From Kiritimatiellia bacterium (GTDB lineage: Bacteria; Verrucomicrobiota; Kiritimatiellia; RFP12; UBA1067): a stretch of 64,000 nt of DNA. Positions 59,224-64,000 of the stretch are shown here, piece by piece. Below the pieces are notes generated by a model that did no database searches, was not told the DNA's origin, and saw only the letters and a list, made by a program, of their open reading frames with translations. Made by a program: the position numbers and the translations under genes. The stretch spans positions 2,015 to 66,014 of the forward strand of contig JAHBAE010000064.1 in assembly GCA_018384485.1 (NCBI GenBank), given 5' to 3'. Each line of letters begins with the position of its first letter. Position 1 is the first letter of the stretch.

Positions 59224-59664
59224 ATGGAACTGAGCAATCTTACCAATACACCTGGAGCGCGTGAGCGCCGTAAGCGTGTCGGCCGCGGCTGCGGCTCCGG
59301 CATGGGCAAGACTTCCTGCAAGGGCCAGAAGGGTCAGCAGAGCCGTAAGGGTCATAAGCACAAACTCGTGTTCGAAGGCGGTCAGATGCCTCTCGTTCGC
59401 CGTTTGCCGAAGCGTGGCTTTAACAATGCCGCCTTCAATGCCAAGGCTCTCGGCGTGAATCTCTCCTCGCTCGAGGCGAAGTTCGAGAATGGCGCAGAGA
59501 TTACCGTCTCCGCTCTTGCAAAGGCTGGCTTCAGCGACAACAAGCGTCCGAAAATCAAAATCCTCGGCGTCGGTGAAGTTACCAAGAAGTTCACGATCAA
59601 GGGCATTCCTTGCTCGGCCACCGCGAAGCAGAAAATCGAGGCGGCCGGCGGTTCTGTCGCTTGA
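59224..59664 (+). CDS. rplO: 50S ribosomal protein L15
   Basis: MELSNL...RKRVGRGCGSGMGKTSCKGQKGQ; start ATG 59224 (GGAAGGAG upstream). Confidence 0.94.
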   Translation: MELSNLTNTPGARERRKRVGRGCGSGMGKTSCKGQKGQQSRKGHKHKLVFEGGQMPLVRRLPKRGFNNAAFNAKALGVNLSSLEAKFENGAEITVSALAKAGFSDNKRPKIKILGVGEVTKKFTIKGIPCSATAKQKIEAAGGSVA

Positions 59665-59688
59665 GATTTATCTTCAGCATGAAAAGGT

Positions 59689-59723
59689 ATGCCGCATCCG
59701 AAAAGATGCGGCATTCTTTTTTT
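59689..59723 (+). terminator. Strong Rho-independent terminator ending the ribosomal protein cluster
   Basis: ATGCCGCATC-cgaaaa-GATGCGGCAT (perfect 10-bp stem), then TC and TTTTTTT. Confidence 0.85.
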
Positions 59724-59888
59724 GTTCGCTGGAGTTTACCCTTTTTTTTGAACGTGAAAGCGCATTTTATCCCGATAAATAAAAGTGAAGTGTATCTTGC
59801 GAAGTGTATTTTATGGTTTTACATTTATGAAAGGCTATCCGTAGCGTCATCTCCTGTCCTTACGATCCTTGACCGTGAAGAGCGGTTT

Positions 59889-59897
59889 TGATATATT
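59889..59897 (+). promoter_or_regulatory. Candidate extended -10 promoter TGATATATT for the glycine-rich protein gene
   Basis: It lies in an AT-rich 380-nt spacer. The 147-nt leader contains the hairpin GGGTGA...TCACCC. Confidence 0.4.
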
Positions 59898-60044
59898 ACT
59901 TCAGCATATGAGGAAAGGGTTCGGGCAATTGGACTTTGAATCGACCGTTGGCGTGGCCAATGGCCTGATGGGTGATAACTTTGGATTCACCCCCTCGCTG
60001 ATTTCACTCACATACCACAATATAACTCAAGAAAGGTCAATACC

Positions 60045-63000
60045 ATGAGCGCATGGCGTAAGGTCTGTTGTTGTCTCACAATGGTCGCGGGGCTTTCGTT
60101 TGGGGCGTCGGCGGCGCTGACGATCGGTACGACGGACGATCCGAAGGCGACAGAGGTTGACCTCGGCAACGACGTCTACCTGCTTGAGTTCAAGAACGGC
60201 AACGCGGAGCCGTGGACGTTCACGCCGATGGCTCCGGTGCGCGTCGAGAAGATGCTGGTCGTGGGCGGCGGCGGCTCGGGCGGCTGCGATTGCGGCGCGG
60301 GTGGCGGCGGCGGCGCGGTGCTGTACACGAACTACACCGAACTTGCCGAGGCGGACCGTCCGATGCTCAGTGAACCCGTGTCCATCCTCGTCGGCGCGGG
60401 CGGGATTGCGGCGACTAGCACGTCCAGAAGCGGCAAGCTTGGCGGAATGTCCGAGATCACGGTCGGCGGCGTGACCTTCTCCGCTTACGGCGGCGGTGGC
60501 GGCGGACATTGGAGCGGGCCCGGTTCGCTGGCCGCCGAAGAGGGAAAGATCGCGTCCGGCGGCGGCAAGGGCAACGGTGGTTTCGCCAATTTCCAGACGG
60601 ACGGCAAGGGTTATAATTCGCTTTACGGACACAAGGGCGGGACTAATTTCGATGCCTTGAATGCGGGTGGCGGCGGCGGCGCGGGCGGCGACGGAGAGGA
60701 CGGGGCGGATGCGCTTGGCGGCAAGGGCGGCATTGGTTTTTCGTGCGACATTACGGGGGAGCCGCATCTCTATGGTTCGGGTGGTTGCGCGGCGCGCGAG
60801 AATCCGAAGGAGCCCTACGAAGGCGGCGGCAGCCGTGCGGCGGGTTACAGCATGAACGGCACGGACGGGCTTGGCGGCGGCGGCTCGGGCAGTTACTCGA
60901 GCACGAGCAGCAGTGGTGCGGGTGGCTGCGGTACGGTCATTCTCGTCGTCAAGTACATCGGTGACGGCAAGATCCATGCGGAGATCGATAAGGTGTTTTC
61001 GGCATATGACGGGGCCTCGCATACCAATACGCTGACGGTTTACTCGCGCGGCGTGACAGTGAAATGGGCTCTTGCGGAGGACGGGCCGTTCGACCTTGAT
61101 GAGCAGCCGGGCTTCACCGAGATCGGTATCCATTCCTGCTGGTGCCGGCTGACGGCATCGGACTGCGAACCGGTGGTCCTGAAGGGCATGGTGTACATCC
61201 GCGGCGATGCGGAGCCCTTGAGCGTTGGCGTCGCGGACGATCCGGGAGTGGTGCAGTATTCCTTTGGAGATGGCCATTATGTGCTCGGATTCACCAATTT
61301 TGAAATGGCGGCGATTTCCGTTTCGCCTCTCTCCTGCCTGCGTATTGAGCGGATGCTGGTCGTGGGGGGCGGCGGTTCGGGCGGCAACAACTGCGGTGGC
61401 GGCGGCGGTGGTGGCGGCGTGATCTGGCAGGACTACCGCTCGTTGCCCGAGGCGGAGCGTCCGACGATCACCAATGAATTTGGCGTGACAATCGGGCGCG
61501 GCGGCAGTTCCGCGCTGAAGCAGGGGGTCGGGCAGAACGGCAATCCGACGACGCTTACCGTCGAAGGCGTGTCGACCTCGGCCTGGGGCGGTGGAGGCGG
61601 CGGCTCGTTCACGACGGTTCCCGCGGTTGCCGCGGTCACGGGTCAGATTGGCTCGGGCGGTGGCGCGAGCTTTAAGGGCGGCGGCAGTATGGGCATTGAC
61701 GGCATAGGCTACAATTCGAAGCAAGGTAAGATGGGTGGCGCGATGAACGGTGCCCAGGGTGCGGGCGGTGGTGGCGCGGGATCTGTCGGCGGCGCTGCTT
61801 CGGCGACGGCTGCGGGACGTGGCGGCGATGGCTTTGCATGCAAAATCACGGGCGAAACGCATCTTTACGGTTCAGGCGGCGGTGGCGGCAACGGAACGAT
61901 TCCTGATCCGCCGGAAGGCGGCGGGCGCGGCGGAAACGGTTCGATCGCCGTGACCGGCGGCACGGACGGTCTGGGTGGCGGTGGCGGTGGCTCGAAGGGC
62001 GGAACGGGCGACTGGCCGTCCGGTTCGGGCGGTGCGGGCTGCGTCTACCTGCATGTCACCGCGATTGAGAATCCTTATGTCAGTGCGGTCCTGTCCGACT
62101 GCTGGGGCTCCACGGCCGGCGAGGCGCATTCAAACGAACTGATCGTCGCGACGGCGGGGGTGACGACGAAGTGGTCTCTGACGGGCGCGGAGGGTCCGTT
62201 CGACCTCGACGTGCAGCCGAGCTTTGCGACGCCGGGTATTTACACCAACTGGTGCGAGCTGACGGCCGCCGGCAAGGAGACGCTGGTCCTACGGGGCATC
62301 GTCGGACTTCGCGCGGCGGACGGCGACTATTATGTCGCGGCGGACGGCGATGACAAGACCGGGCTTGGTACGGCGGACCGTCCGTTCGCGACGCCGGAAA
62401 AGGCGCTGGCGAATGTCCGCGACGGTTATGGGGTCCGAATCGGCGCGGGCAAGTACAAGACGTTCGGTCTTGTCCTTGACCGCGCCGTTGCGCTGGTCGG
62501 TGACGAGTCGGATCCGTCGCGCGTCGTGCTAGATGCGGGGCAGCTTGGTCGGACGCTGAAGATTGCCGACGAAGCGGTGCGCGTCAGCGGCGTGACGATA
62601 AAGGGCGGATTCGCGTCCAGCGGCGCAAACGTCTATATGACGGCCGGCGTCGTCTCGAACTGCGTGCTGACTGGCGGCAACGGATCCGACAATGGCGGCA
62701 ACGCCTATGTCGGCGGCGGACAGATCGTCGATTCGCAGATCTTGAACGGCTCGGCGCGTCGCGGCGGCGGTGCGGCGGTGTCTGGCCGCGGCCGGATTTT
62801 GCGCTGTCTCTTCAAGGGCAACAGCGTCACCGATTCCGGCGGCGGCGTGTCAATAAACGGCAACGGCGTGGTGGAGAACTCCCTCTTCACTGGCAACAGC
62901 GGAAGGTACGGCAGCGGTGTGCAGTTGGATTCGATGGACGCCTGGCTGGTCAACTGCACGGTTGCCGGCAATGCGGCAGGATATGGTAGCGCTTCCCAAG

Positions 63001-63356
63001 TCTGGAACGAGACTAATGGCGGCAATGCGCTCAACTGCGTTGTGCTTGGCGGCTATTACATCAAGAAGGGTACGATCTCGTACTGTGCGCTTGATCTGAC
63101 GCCCAGGGAGGAGACCACGGGCACGAAGTTCTACGATCACAACGTTACCGTCGATTCGAGCATCTTCGAGGACACGACGGCCTATCGTCCGAAGAAGGGC
63201 ACTGATCTTCAGGGCAAGGGGTCCAACCTGGGCTATTCCGCGCATGCGGTCTCAACAACCGACTACGAGGGCAGTCCGCGTCGGCAGGGAGCTCGCATCG
63301 ACATCGGCCACATCGAGCTGCCGCCGAAGGACGGCACGCTACTGTTCGTCAGGTAA
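60045..63356 (+). CDS. Secreted 1103-aa protein: 2 tandem poly-glycine modules + C-terminal right-handed parallel beta-helix
   Basis: Sec signal MSAWRKVCCCLTMVAGLSFGASA|A and SD-like GAAAGG upstream. The frame stays open through GGC-rich sequence. The C-terminus has DYYVAADGDD..RPFATPEKAL plus PbH1-like turns (VSNCVLTGGNG, IVDSQILNGSA, ILRCLFKGNS, VENSLFTGNSG, LVNCTVAGNAA). Confidence 0.8.
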   Translation: MSAWRKVCCCLTMVAGLSFGASAALTIGTTDDPKATEVDLGNDVYLLEFKNGNAEPWTFTPMAPVRVEKMLVVGGGGSGGCDCGAGGGGGAVLYTNYTELAEADRPMLSEPVSILVGAGGIAATSTSRSGKLGGMSEITVGGVTFSAYGGGGGGHWSGPGSLAAEEGKIASGGGKGNGGFANFQTDGKGYNSLYGHKGGTNFDALNAGGGGGAGGDGEDGADALGGKGGIGFSCDITGEPHLYGSGGCAARENPKEPYEGGGSRAAGYSMNGTDGLGGGGSGSYSSTSSSGAGGCGTVILVVKYIGDGKIHAEIDKVFSAYDGASHTNTLTVYSRGVTVKWALAEDGPFDLDEQPGFTEIGIHSCWCRLTASDCEPVVLKGMVYIRGDAEPLSVGVADDPGVVQYSFGDGHYVLGFTNFEMAAISVSPLSCLRIERMLVVGGGGSGGNNCGGGGGGGGVIWQDYRSLPEAERPTITNEFGVTIGRGGSSALKQGVGQNGNPTTLTVEGVSTSAWGGGGGGSFTTVPAVAAVTGQIGSGGGASFKGGGSMGIDGIGYNSKQGKMGGAMNGAQGAGGGGAGSVGGAASATAAGRGGDGFACKITGETHLYGSGGGGGNGTIPDPPEGGGRGGNGSIAVTGGTDGLGGGGGGSKGGTGDWPSGSGGAGCVYLHVTAIENPYVSAVLSDCWGSTAGEAHSNELIVATAGVTTKWSLTGAEGPFDLDVQPSFATPGIYTNWCELTAAGKETLVLRGIVGLRAADGDYYVAADGDDKTGLGTADRPFATPEKALANVRDGYGVRIGAGKYKTFGLVLDRAVALVGDESDPSRVVLDAGQLGRTLKIADEAVRVSGVTIKGGFASSGANVYMTAGVVSNCVLTGGNGSDNGGNAYVGGGQIVDSQILNGSARRGGGAAVSGRGRILRCLFKGNSVTDSGGGVSINGNGVVENSLFTGNSGRYGSGVQLDSMDAWLVNCTVAGNAAGYGSASQVWNETNGGNALNCVVLGGYYIKKGTISYCALDLTPREETTGTKFYDHNVTVDSSIFEDTTAYRPKKGTDLQGKGSNLGYSAHAVSTTDYEGSPRRQGARIDIGHIELPPKDGTLLFVR
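60117..62312 (+). repeat. Intragenic tandem duplication: two ~365-codon modules (60117-61208 and 61218-62312)
   Basis: The same ordered motifs recur ~367 aa apart: MLVVGGGGSGG (aa 70/437), HLYGSGG (241/606), GTDGLGGGG (272/639) and GPFDLD (347/717). Confidence 0.85.
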
Positions 63357-63385
63357 TGTGGCGGGCGGGCAACAGCCCGGCATTT

Positions 63386-63394
63386 TGGTATAAT
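63386..63394 (+). promoter_or_regulatory. Extended -10 promoter TGGTATAAT (leaderless GH78-like mRNA)
   Basis: The -10 ends 7 nt before ATG 63402; there is no SD. Confidence 0.5.
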
Positions 63395-63401
63395 ATCGGC
63401 T

Positions 63402-64000
63402 ATGAGATACCAGACAATTCTGCTGGCGGCGGCCGTCGGGCTCCTCGCCTTTGAAACTGGCGCCACGGCCAGATGGATTTCGGATCGCGCCGACGGGGGA
63501 GTTGACGTGGCGCGGCCGATGGTCGGGGTCGGCGTCGCGGCGACGCTGCCGAAAGACGTCATCGCCGTGCGCAAGCGCTTCGTGCTGAAGGACGCGCCGG
63601 CCTCCGCGCACGCGAAGGTCACGGGTCTCGGCTTCTACCGTCTGGTCGTCAACGGCGTGGATGTCGATCCGACGCGGATGATGATGCCCGGGTGGACGAA
63701 TCCGGGGTGGAGGGTCCTTTACGACGAATACGACGTGGCGCGGTGGCTGCGGGAGGGGACGAACGAGGTACGCATCCTCCTCGCGCCCGGGTATGCGGAT
63801 GACATGAATCCGTGGACGTGGCGGTGGATGCGCCCCAAGCGCGCGTGGATGGAGATGGAGGTCGCGGACGGCGACGCGCCGCGACGGATCGTGACGGACG
63901 GTACATGGGAGTTCACAGACGACCTGCCGTTCGTCTCGGCTTCGATCTACCACGGCGAGACGTACGATGCGACGCGCGGCGGAAACGCGCGGTGGCGTCC
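63402..64000 (+). CDS. Alpha-L-rhamnosidase (GH78)-like protein, N-terminal part (runs off the window; not in the ORF track)
   Basis: My own translation gives MRYQTILLAAAVGLLAFETGATA (signal), then RKRFVLKDAPASAHAKVTGLGFYRLVVNGVDVDPTRMMMPGWTNPGWRVLYDEYDVARWLREGTNEVRILLAPGY. This is the pattern of the bacterial rhamnosidase N-terminal domain. Confidence 0.68.
   Translation, partial: MRYQTILLAAAVGLLAFETGATARWISDRADGGVDVARPMVGVGVAATLPKDVIAVRKRFVLKDAPASAHAKVTGLGFYRLVVNGVDVDPTRMMMPGWTNPGWRVLYDEYDVARWLREGTNEVRILLAPGYADDMNPWTWRWMRPKRAWMEMEVADGDAPRRIVTDGTWEFTDDLPFVSASIYHGETYDATRGGNARWR

Follow-up and report, generated by a model that had tools for sequence, protein, structure and literature searches.

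A GC-rich two-gene block, most likely acquired horizontally, adjoins a ribosomal-protein cluster that ends at rplO in a Kiritimatiellia bacterium

Features at the 3' end of the window

The window (the whole stretch of DNA that was analysed, 64,000 nucleotides) ends with the last gene of a ribosomal-protein cluster, its terminator, a spacer and a pair of GC-rich genes, hereafter the island:

59224..59664, plus strand: rplO (L15), Pfam Ribosomal_L27A; last gene of the S10-spc ribosomal-protein cluster in the clade
59689..59722, plus strand: intrinsic terminator at the operon end; perfect 10-bp stem, 6-nt loop, T-run
59723..60044, plus strand: AT-rich spacer, 322 nt, GC 0.422
60045..63356, plus strand: first island gene, 1103 aa; two Gly_rich_2 (PF21722) modules and a C-terminal beta-helix-like region; predicted to be secreted
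63357..63401, plus strand: intergenic stretch inside the island, 45 nt; weak hairpin at 63362-63379 and extended -10 box TGGTATAAT at 63386-63394
63402..64000, continuing to C70:67722 (window-equivalent 65711), plus strand: second island gene, GH78 alpha-L-rhamnosidase, 769 aa

The rplO product shared 75-86% identity with its congener counterparts over residues 1-146, and the exact protein was carried by 116 public contigs. The arms of the terminator stem, ATGCCGCATC and GATGCGGCAT, span 59689-59714 with the loop between them and are followed by TCTTTTTTTG. The first-pass annotation had described a perfect 10-bp-stem terminator after rplO, an AT-rich spacer of about 320 nt, and then a glycine-rich gene and a GH78-like gene; all of these were found in their places, the two genes with Pfam support. 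The spacer had no second copy anywhere in the genome and was the most polymorphic part of the region among strains (pi 0.021), and a promoter scan detected a promoter-like site in it (TTGACC-17-TATATT with an upstream TG, 59869-59897). Neither the spacer nor the island nor its right flank had a credible match in Rfam.

The Gly_rich_2 model matched two stretches of the first island protein with 95.7 bits, against a gathering cut-off of 24.3, and a weak NosD-like match was obtained for residues 786-857. An exact look-up of this protein returned no record, and a 98% cluster representative was found by homology. For the second gene, the part lying in the window matched Bac_rhamnosid_N (83.9 bits), and the full 769-aa record contained Bac_rhamnosid_N, Bac_rhamnosid, Bac_rhamnosid6H and Bac_rhamnosid_C in this order, together with an N-terminal signal-like segment, which makes the protein similar to the GH78 alpha-L-rhamnosidases; among 8000 candidates scored, 605 were homologues at E <= 0.001. 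In contrast, it fell far under the cut-offs of the NCBIfam rhamnosidase equivalogs (254 vs 1720 bits and 220 vs 1800), and it represents a short form without PF25788, an extra domain carried by the GH78 proteins of most family-level relatives. Judging from its domains, the protein most likely adds a rhamnose-releasing glycan-degradation function.

The promoter-like TGGTATAAT box that had been proposed at 63386 was confirmed. Since it ends 7 nt upstream of the GH78 ATG, the GH78 mRNA may be leaderless. Four copies of TGGTATAAT were present in the window, against 0.05 expected, all of them on the plus strand and upstream of genes; a box of the same type was also located upstream of the native secY, and a TGGTATACT variant upstream of rpmJ. 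The island genes are presumably expressed from such host-type promoters.

Base composition of the island

The GC content was 0.529 over positions 1-59664 and 0.650 over 60045-64000, and the contig tail supplied the top 4-kb GC windows of the 1.82-Mb genome (0.66 vs a mean of 0.514, sd 0.028). The single-line counts that had first drawn attention to the segment were exact (0.417, 0.467 and 0.533 in housekeeping genes vs 0.633 and 0.783). The GC-rich block consists of two coding sequences, 5.7 kb in all, and its sharp borders coincide with both. The Gly-rich gene had a GC content of 0.647 and a four-fold GC of 0.784, and the GH78 gene had values of 0.677 and 0.893, whereas the four-fold GC of nine ribosomal genes was 0.57-0.74 and that of the 1168 long ORFs of the genome 0.556 ± 0.081, with only three of the 1168 reaching 0.88 or more. 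The jump was not an effect of glycine codons, since four-fold GC remained high without them (0.827 in the Gly-rich gene, 0.90 in the GH78 gene); the atypical composition is independent of amino-acid content, and the profile without glycine codons was far from flat, so the foreign composition stands. The segment is compositionally foreign, and its transfer is the most likely explanation of that composition.

The remaining high-GC3 genes of the genome are of the kind usual in accessory or mobile DNA: they encode SASA and GDSL esterases, DDE and IS200-like transposases, a DNA methylase and a melibiase-like enzyme. The genome is small (about 2 Mb) and lower in GC, and about a dozen GC3-rich imports, the island among them, have entered it.

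Integrity of the junction

Besides acquired DNA, the first-pass annotation had considered a mis-join, in which the ribosomal cluster of an organism of GC 0.51 would have been joined to the DNA of a co-occurring GC-rich relative. Such a chimera finds some room in the assembly: the genome is a metagenome bin of 117 contigs with an estimated contamination of 2%, the GC-rich block sits near a contig end, GC-rich congeners exist, and contig C96 is contaminant-like, carrying a second secY-map-rpsM-rpsK-rpsD-rpoA set that is 39-55% identical to the native genes. However, the order rplO, Gly_rich_2 (1103 aa), GH78 was recovered in 10/10 independent metagenome assemblies, which came from several studies and different assemblers (MEGAHIT k141 and k127, SPAdes, scaffolds) and each aligned to the window as a single piece with 99.2-99.35% identity. 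Three of them (L067-L069) passed through the far side of the block into DNA of GC 0.41-0.50 that corresponds to contig C84 of the same bin at 98.6%. A repeat-driven false join was discarded because the left spacer is unique in the genome, leaving no shared repeat to cause it. Synonymous diversity at the strain level was equal on both sides of the junction, the segregating synonymous sites per synonymous site being 0.054 and 0.051 in the island genes and 0.03-0.05 in the ribosomal genes. The TGGTATAAT box, which had been put forward as an argument against a chimera, did not discriminate between the scenarios because congeners use the same box. With the same junction in ten assemblies, a chimeric origin is extremely improbable; the contig is sound, and it is C96, with its duplicate of the region from secY to rpoA, that was flagged as contaminant-like. 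An assembly-graph branch in which the end of the secY contig (C10) overlapped the rplO spacer was also considered and rejected, the longest shared word being 15 nt and lying elsewhere in the contig.

All the sampled strains had an identical arrangement, and pN/pS among strains was 0.30 for the Gly-rich gene and 0.22 for the GH78 gene. The island is fixed, inherited vertically and kept under purifying selection.

End of the ribosomal cluster and position of secY across the clade

The linkage of spc, secY and alpha is otherwise very stable. In the window, the canonical S10-spc-alpha arrangement was interrupted at rplO: as had been observed at first reading, no secY followed, and the native secY was found on a different contig (C10) as a stand-alone gene with its own promoter, flanked by an SDR gene and a BNR sialidase-like gene in four independent assemblies. 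Contig C114 carried the alpha cluster, which includes rpmJ and has a promoter of its own, and map was located on C61.

Immediately 3' of rplO, secY was present in nine genomes from other families of the order and in 6/10 genomes of genus g14. It was absent from this position in about 20 of the 21 species of the bacterium's own genus and in all the species of its sister genus, g16 (n = 9/9). Within the bacterium's own genus (g1), six species had no secY within 12 kb of rplO and others had none within 1.5-9.5 kb, with the exception of one genome (G012) in which secY lay 900 bp downstream of rplO with one small gene between them. Most of the species inspected had a hairpin and T-run right after rplO, followed by differing genes, and the downstream neighbour of rplO was different in every congener checked. 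The proposal that the island had been inserted into, or had broken, the spc/alpha junction was not sustained, because about 30 species of the two genera lack the rplO-secY link and end the cluster at rplO regardless, with different neighbours. The missing secY is unrelated to the GC-rich block, and the distribution indicates that the common ancestor of at least two genera had already lost the link.

A survey of 204 genomes of Proteobacteria, Acidobacteria, Firmicutes and Tenericutes found secY outside spc only in Bacillus selenitireducens, and operon disconnection was described there as beginning with a few genes that invade the inter-operon space (PMC8046335). The present case is similar in that the break lies at an operon border and secY has moved out of spc, and the G012 genome, with its single small gene between rplO and secY, looks like the early stage. 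In contrast to the one occurrence in that survey, the relocation of secY is common here to two whole genera (about 30 species checked), and map and the alpha operon are dispersed too. A whole clade of gut bacteria, probably Kiritimatiellae to judge from two named distant homologues of the island proteins, took apart the spc-secY-alpha linkage, and the rearrangement point after rplO should help synteny-based annotation and work on how operons evolve.

Distribution and origin of the island

A synteny comparison with related genomes revealed that relatives do not share the rplO-to-Gly-rich junction. No orthologue of the Gly-rich gene was detected among 30 relatives, no GH78 above 48% identity was present among 221 genomes of the family, and the best GH78 among the matches listed for GTDB species representatives in a pattern scan was 45% identical; a donor search over these sets (both proteins for the 30 relatives) yielded nothing closer than 45-48%. 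The nearest homologues were 59, 50 and 52% identical for the Gly-rich protein and 60, 56 and 53% for GH78, on GC-rich contigs where every gene had a four-fold GC of 0.74-0.95. A neighbour gene on one of these contigs was 68% identical to proteins of the family, including one from the bacterium's own genome, suggesting that this contig probably comes from the same family; the donor was probably a GC-rich organism of the same family or order. A conserved Gly-rich plus GH78 cassette was not found elsewhere, the nearest homologues of each gene having other neighbours, and since the two genes are not adjacent on any homologue-bearing contig they may have come in as separate acquisitions or been brought together in this genome.

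The block resembles the horizontally acquired genomic islands known from the exchange of glycan-utilisation genes in the gut: its GC and GC3 are sharply off those of the host, it is confined to one species, it encodes a secreted glycoside hydrolase along with a surface protein, and repeats adjoin it where synteny breaks, while transposases and a methylase are found in several other islands of like composition in the genome. It differs from them in having two genes only and in lacking an integrase, conjugation genes and direct repeats. The block was bracketed by neither direct nor inverted repeats, no mobility genes were seen among its own ORFs and called genes or those of its flanks, and, of the mobility signatures of a genomic island, only dispersed repeats were present, on the right side. 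Unlike strain-variable islands, the block is fixed in all sampled strains, with diversity at the level of core genes.

We consider it likely that the locus reflects two independent events of different age, a clade-wide end of the operon and a species-specific horizontal gain. In the older one, the S10-spc cluster would have become a closed unit ending at the rplO terminator in the ancestor of the genus and its sister genus, with secY turned into a stand-alone gene under its own TGGTATAAT promoter and map moved elsewhere; from then on, the DNA past the terminator would have served as a free rearrangement point, nearly every species having a different neighbour there. In the younger one, the 5.7-kb block would have been gained horizontally in the lineage of this species, probably one of the gut Kiritimatiellae, bringing the genes for a GH78 alpha-L-rhamnosidase and for a secreted surface protein of the Gly_rich_2/beta-helix type to a site that is now bounded by the rplO terminator on one side and by a patch of species-specific octamer-repeat elements on the other. 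Of the explanations first proposed, horizontal acquisition of foreign DNA is supported as the most likely, whereas insertion into the spc/alpha junction and a mis-join did not stand.

The genes could instead be native, descended vertically in an ancestrally GC-rich genus, with gene-specific forces (codon selection, or GC-biased conversion or repair) keeping their GC3 high against a drift to lower GC in the remainder of the genome. Most congeners are indeed GC-rich (0.58-0.67 around rplO), so that the compositional argument depends on the low GC of this species being long-standing; in addition, GH78 matches at E <= 1e-100 occurred in 37/221 family genomes, Gly_rich_2 matches were many in the family, and the block has a host-type promoter box inside it and no flanking mobility gene. 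Several results were contrary to native descent. No congener had an orthologue, and the best family GH78 was only 48% identical, against the values of 75-86% for rplO within the genus; rplO's downstream neighbour differed in every species; and the gene borders were exactly where GC3 dropped from 0.89 to the level of the host. Expression-linked codon selection is insufficient to give 0.89, because the highly expressed ribosomal genes reached only 0.57-0.74, and the same GC3 class holds transposases and a DNA methylase. Native descent was consequently regarded as improbable.

A further variant of acquisition is that the block, or its single genes, entered elsewhere and was later moved beside rplO by intragenomic rearrangement, possibly through recombination between dispersed octamer-repeat copies. 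The site after rplO is a rearrangement point clade-wide, the right flank is built from repeats that are scattered over more than 30 contigs, its border is partly shared with another GC3-rich block (described below), and the two genes are unlinked on the homologue-bearing contigs. However, nothing separates relocation from direct insertion, the genome contained neither a second copy nor an empty site, and a single arrangement was found in all sampled strains; we rate a two-step route as very improbable. Under the preferred reading, a horizontal gain that followed the closure of the operon, this is ordinary gene transfer that would not surprise a specialist: the species takes up glycan-degrading and surface genes from GC-rich relatives, and these become fixed. 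The only possibly new lead is offered by the border repeat elements.

Octamer-repeat elements at the right border

The right border of the island is a species-specific octamer-repeat element, composed of (GAATGTTN)n and related short-period arrays. The island and a block on contig C46 (7130-10551), which is bracketed by inverted arrays, are the two most GC3-rich blocks of the genome, and their right borders have in common a 69-nt segment (94% identity) and the same arrays. Genes of extreme GC3 adjoined arrays far more often than other genes (5/13 vs 35/1155). On these associations it is a long shot that octamer-array elements flag the places where foreign gene cassettes are captured, or even bring the capture about; if so, they would represent a novel type of system, either for acquiring cassettes at repeat borders or as a recombination hot spot. 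A link of the repeats to an IS200-like/RAYT-type transposase on C99 was examined and dropped, as C99 did not match the right-flank repeat or the octamer pattern.

The array copies beside the island have a conserved core of about 330 nt with a strong hairpin. On contig C74, an inverted pair of (GAATGTTN)n arrays encloses a 23S_rRNA_IVP gene (four-helix-bundle; 77.5 bits), whereas the island flank has the same arrays without an IVP gene. Of the other four IVP matches in the genome, the one on C88 had no arrays, those on C32 and C83 had tandem arrays on one side, and the one on C112 lay between inverted arrays of a tandem repeat with a different sequence.

The junction between the ribosomal cluster and the GC-rich block

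The window genome (1.82 Mb in 117 contigs, GC 0.511, ~90% complete and ~2% contaminated) carries the window at positions 2015-66014 of C70, a contig of 68,155 bp. Two distant homologues with named sources suggest a gut Kiritimatiellae. The following features were located at the end of the ribosomal cluster and behind it:

59224-59664, + strand: rplO (Pfam Ribosomal_L27A)
59689-59714: intrinsic terminator, a stem-loop with a perfect 10-bp stem, then a T-run
3' of the terminator: AT-rich spacer of 322 nt, GC 0.42
60045-63356, + strand: gene for a 1103-aa protein with two Gly_rich_2 modules (Pfam), hereafter the Gly-rich gene
63402 to window-equivalent 65711 (C70:67722), + strand: GH78 gene (Pfam)

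All of them lie where the first-pass annotation had placed them, and its GC counts for single lines of sequence were exact when recomputed.

The same annotation had considered a mis-join in the assembly. Searched by exact match in public contigs, the rplO protein was located at 10 places in 10 different assemblies, obtained in several studies with MEGAHIT k141, MEGAHIT k127 or SPAdes, or deposited as scaffolds. In all ten, the complete S10-spc cluster is followed by the gene for the 1103-aa Gly_rich_2 protein and this in turn by GH78, and each aligned with the window without a break over 13-15 kb, with an identity of 99.2-99.35%. Three of these public contigs (L067-L069) run through the block into low-GC DNA, which matches another contig of the bin, C84, at 98.6%. 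The left spacer occurs as a single copy in the window genome, so that no repeat is available to produce a false join. A chimeric contig is thus considered excluded.

Base composition of the block and other GC-rich genes

The GC content rises from 0.529 in window positions 1-59664 to 0.650 in 60045-64000, and the tail of C70 holds the most GC-rich 4-kb windows genome-wide (0.66 vs a mean of 0.514, sd 0.028). At four-fold degenerate codon sites, GC was 0.784 in the Gly-rich gene, 0.893 in GH78, 0.57-0.74 in the nine ribosomal-protein genes just upstream of the block and 0.556 ± 0.081 in the 1168 long ORFs of the genome, among which only three reach 0.88 or more. With glycine codons left out, the value for the Gly-rich gene was 0.827, indicating that the GC step is not a glycine-codon effect. 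In the longer public contigs, GC drops from 0.67 to 0.41 within 500 bp beyond the GH78 stop; the elevated GC is limited to the two coding sequences, which delimits a block of 5.7 kb, from window position 60045 to window-equivalent 65711. Across species of the same genus, GC around rplO spans about 0.42-0.67, unusually wide within one genus, and the window species is, with a few others, among its low-GC members.

Genome-wide, a four-fold GC of at least 0.78 was reached by fifteen ORFs (200 aa or longer), and about a dozen genes besides the island reach at least 0.80, against the genome mean of 0.556. The GC3-rich loci (high by this measure) are C46:7130-10551, C102:1-2346, C71:6370-8049, C111:4991-6877, C79:10665-11930, C99:1435-2952, C91:70-1302, C91:19579-26145, C64:7930-9711 and C83:5685-7118, and many of these ORFs sit at contig ends. 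SASA and GDSL esterases, a melibiase-like hydrolase and a 2189-aa surface protein are among their products, as are two transposases (one DDE, one IS200-like) and a DNA methylase; a few are housekeeping-type candidates named by eye (thiC-, thiH-, ilvC- and metY-like). The set suggests that DNA from GC-rich donors has been imported repeatedly, and its make-up, usual for imported DNA, supports an imported origin of the block.

secY and the end of the ribosomal operon

Two secY matches were found in the window genome, on C10 and C96. The copy on C10 is the native one and 73% identical to secY of a congener; it is preceded by a hairpin and then its own TTTTTGGTATAAT box, and in four independent assemblies it sits well away from the ribosomal operons, with an SDR gene on one side and a BNR sialidase-like gene on the other. 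The ribosomal cluster stops at rplO without secY, as had been noticed from the sequence. C96 (4451 bp) carries the canonical run secY(partial)-map-rpsM-rpsK-rpsD-rpoA, with secY heading the contig; the run is only 39-55% identical to its native counterparts on C10, C61 and C114. Because single-copy markers are duplicated, C96 is best regarded as a probable contaminant of the bin, possibly Bacteroidota-like.

Among 204 genomes of Proteobacteria, Acidobacteria, Firmicutes and Tenericutes, secY lies outside spc in only one species (PMC8046335). Among relatives of the window species, secY is found directly 3' of rplO in nine genomes from other families of the order and in 6/10 genomes of another genus (g14). 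In the window species' own genus, six species were without secY within 12 kb of rplO and another dozen without it within 1.5-9.5 kb; in one congener it lies 900 bp downstream, with one small gene between. It was absent after rplO in all nine species of the sister genus (g16). In the species inspected, a terminator hairpin mostly comes after rplO, and the gene behind it differs per species, for example rpsT, rpsP, an EF-G-like gene, genes for large secreted proteins, an xseA-like gene, a MATE transporter or an ECF sigma factor. The absence of secY directly behind rplO across both genera and the varying next genes indicate that the operon end at rplO is an old, clade-wide trait, unrelated to the GC-rich block, and that the site behind rplO is a recurrent synteny break point. 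The proposal that an island had been inserted into, and had broken, the spc/alpha junction is not borne out, since the link had already been lost in the clade's ancestor.

Origin of the block

No orthologues of either island gene were found in the relatives compared. When the Gly-rich protein and the first 199 aa of GH78 were used as queries against 30 relatives, only domain-level matches (at most 45% identity) came up; for full-length GH78, the best match was 48% among 221 genomes of the family and 45% among the listed matches of a pattern scan of GTDB species representatives. The closest non-self GH78s in a large collection of metagenome proteins were 60, 56 and 53% identical, and the nearest Gly-rich proteins 59, 50 and 52%. 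The contigs bearing these homologues are uniformly GC-rich (GC 0.60-0.68; four-fold GC 0.74-0.95 in every gene). There, as in the island, the Gly-rich gene is somewhat lower in GC3 than its neighbours, indicating that the difference within the island (0.78 vs 0.89) is intrinsic to the gene. A neighbour of the 60% GH78 homologue on its contig encodes a product 68% identical to proteins of the window family, the window genome's own included, and the lineage with the closest GH78 is thus probably a member of that family or of its order. The accessions of several contigs with homologues are adjacent to those of assemblies holding the window species; these contigs and assemblies may come from the same project.

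By its composition and the lack of orthologues in the relatives compared, the block is foreign DNA, most likely acquired horizontally from a GC-rich relative; this part of the earlier proposal stands, although the insert did not break the junction. The adjacency of the two genes was found on none of the homologue-bearing contigs, and they may therefore not have travelled as a pair.

Borders of the block

No integrase or transposase was seen among the genes of the block and its flanks, nor was a repeat bracketing the block found. The block is a small, fixed island without mobility genes, beside a lineage-specific operon end. Its left border is the unique spacer. On the right, C70 runs out in a dispersed repeat; the border region there comprises 1.3 kb without coding sequence, in which (GAATGTTN)n octamer arrays and 9-mer arrays accompany a conserved ~330-nt core with a strong hairpin. 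This patch (C70:67723-68155 = L067:16488-17813) lies beyond the window, and further array copies were located at C46:6915-6954, C46:10585-10689 and C74:23515-24038.

The octamer arrays were counted at 46 or more places spread over 32 contigs, which they often terminate, and are species-specific (92 pattern matches in the window genome vs 0 in 30 relatives). They adjoin GC3-extreme genes (threshold 0.75) more often than others (5/13 vs 35/1155, Fisher p = 2e-4). A second block, C46:7130-10551, which together with the island is the most GC3-rich of the genome, has inverted arrays on either side, and its right border shares with that of the island a 69-nt segment (94% identity) present nowhere else in the genome. 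At C74:23515-24038, a 23S_rRNA_IVP (four-helix-bundle) gene (77.5 bits) lies between an inverted pair of the island-border arrays. Of the four further IVP matches, three are flanked by tandem-repeat arrays with a different sequence, inverted and on both sides on C112, on one side only on C32 and C83; none were found around the match on C88. Given its repeat make-up and the link to IVP genes, the right flank resembles a cluster of small, degenerate selfish elements. Between these repeats and the next low-GC gene lies a 97-aa ORF (L067:17414-17707) with a weak nitroreductase match only, which may be a gene remnant.

Expression signals and within-species history

A putative promoter, TTGACC-17-TATATT with an upstream TG, was recognized 150 nt before the Gly-rich ATG. 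The TGGTATAAT box occurs four times in the window (33651, 42270, 44155 and 63386, + strand) vs 0.05 expected, always upstream of + strand genes. Between the end of the copy at 63386 and the GH78 ATG there are 7 nt, so that the GH78 mRNA may be leaderless. The native secY likewise has a TGGTATAAT-type box in front of it, and rpmJ a TGGTATACT variant. The host-style box noted before GH78 is present, but it cannot separate native from imported DNA, since congeners use the same box.

Ten strains were aligned and segregating sites counted. Segregating synonymous sites per synonymous site amounted to 0.054 in the Gly-rich gene (pN/pS 0.30), 0.051 in GH78 (pN/pS 0.22) and 0.03-0.05 in the ribosomal genes (pN/pS mostly at most 0.11, with the exception of rplF, 1.27 on 5 sites). 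The block has been inherited vertically since its acquisition, under purifying selection. In one of the ten strains, ~246 bp of GH78 (window-equivalent 64596-64842) are swapped for ~100 bp (L076:13796-13895), splitting the gene, and several strains carry a 739-aa form of GH78 in place of the 769-aa form.
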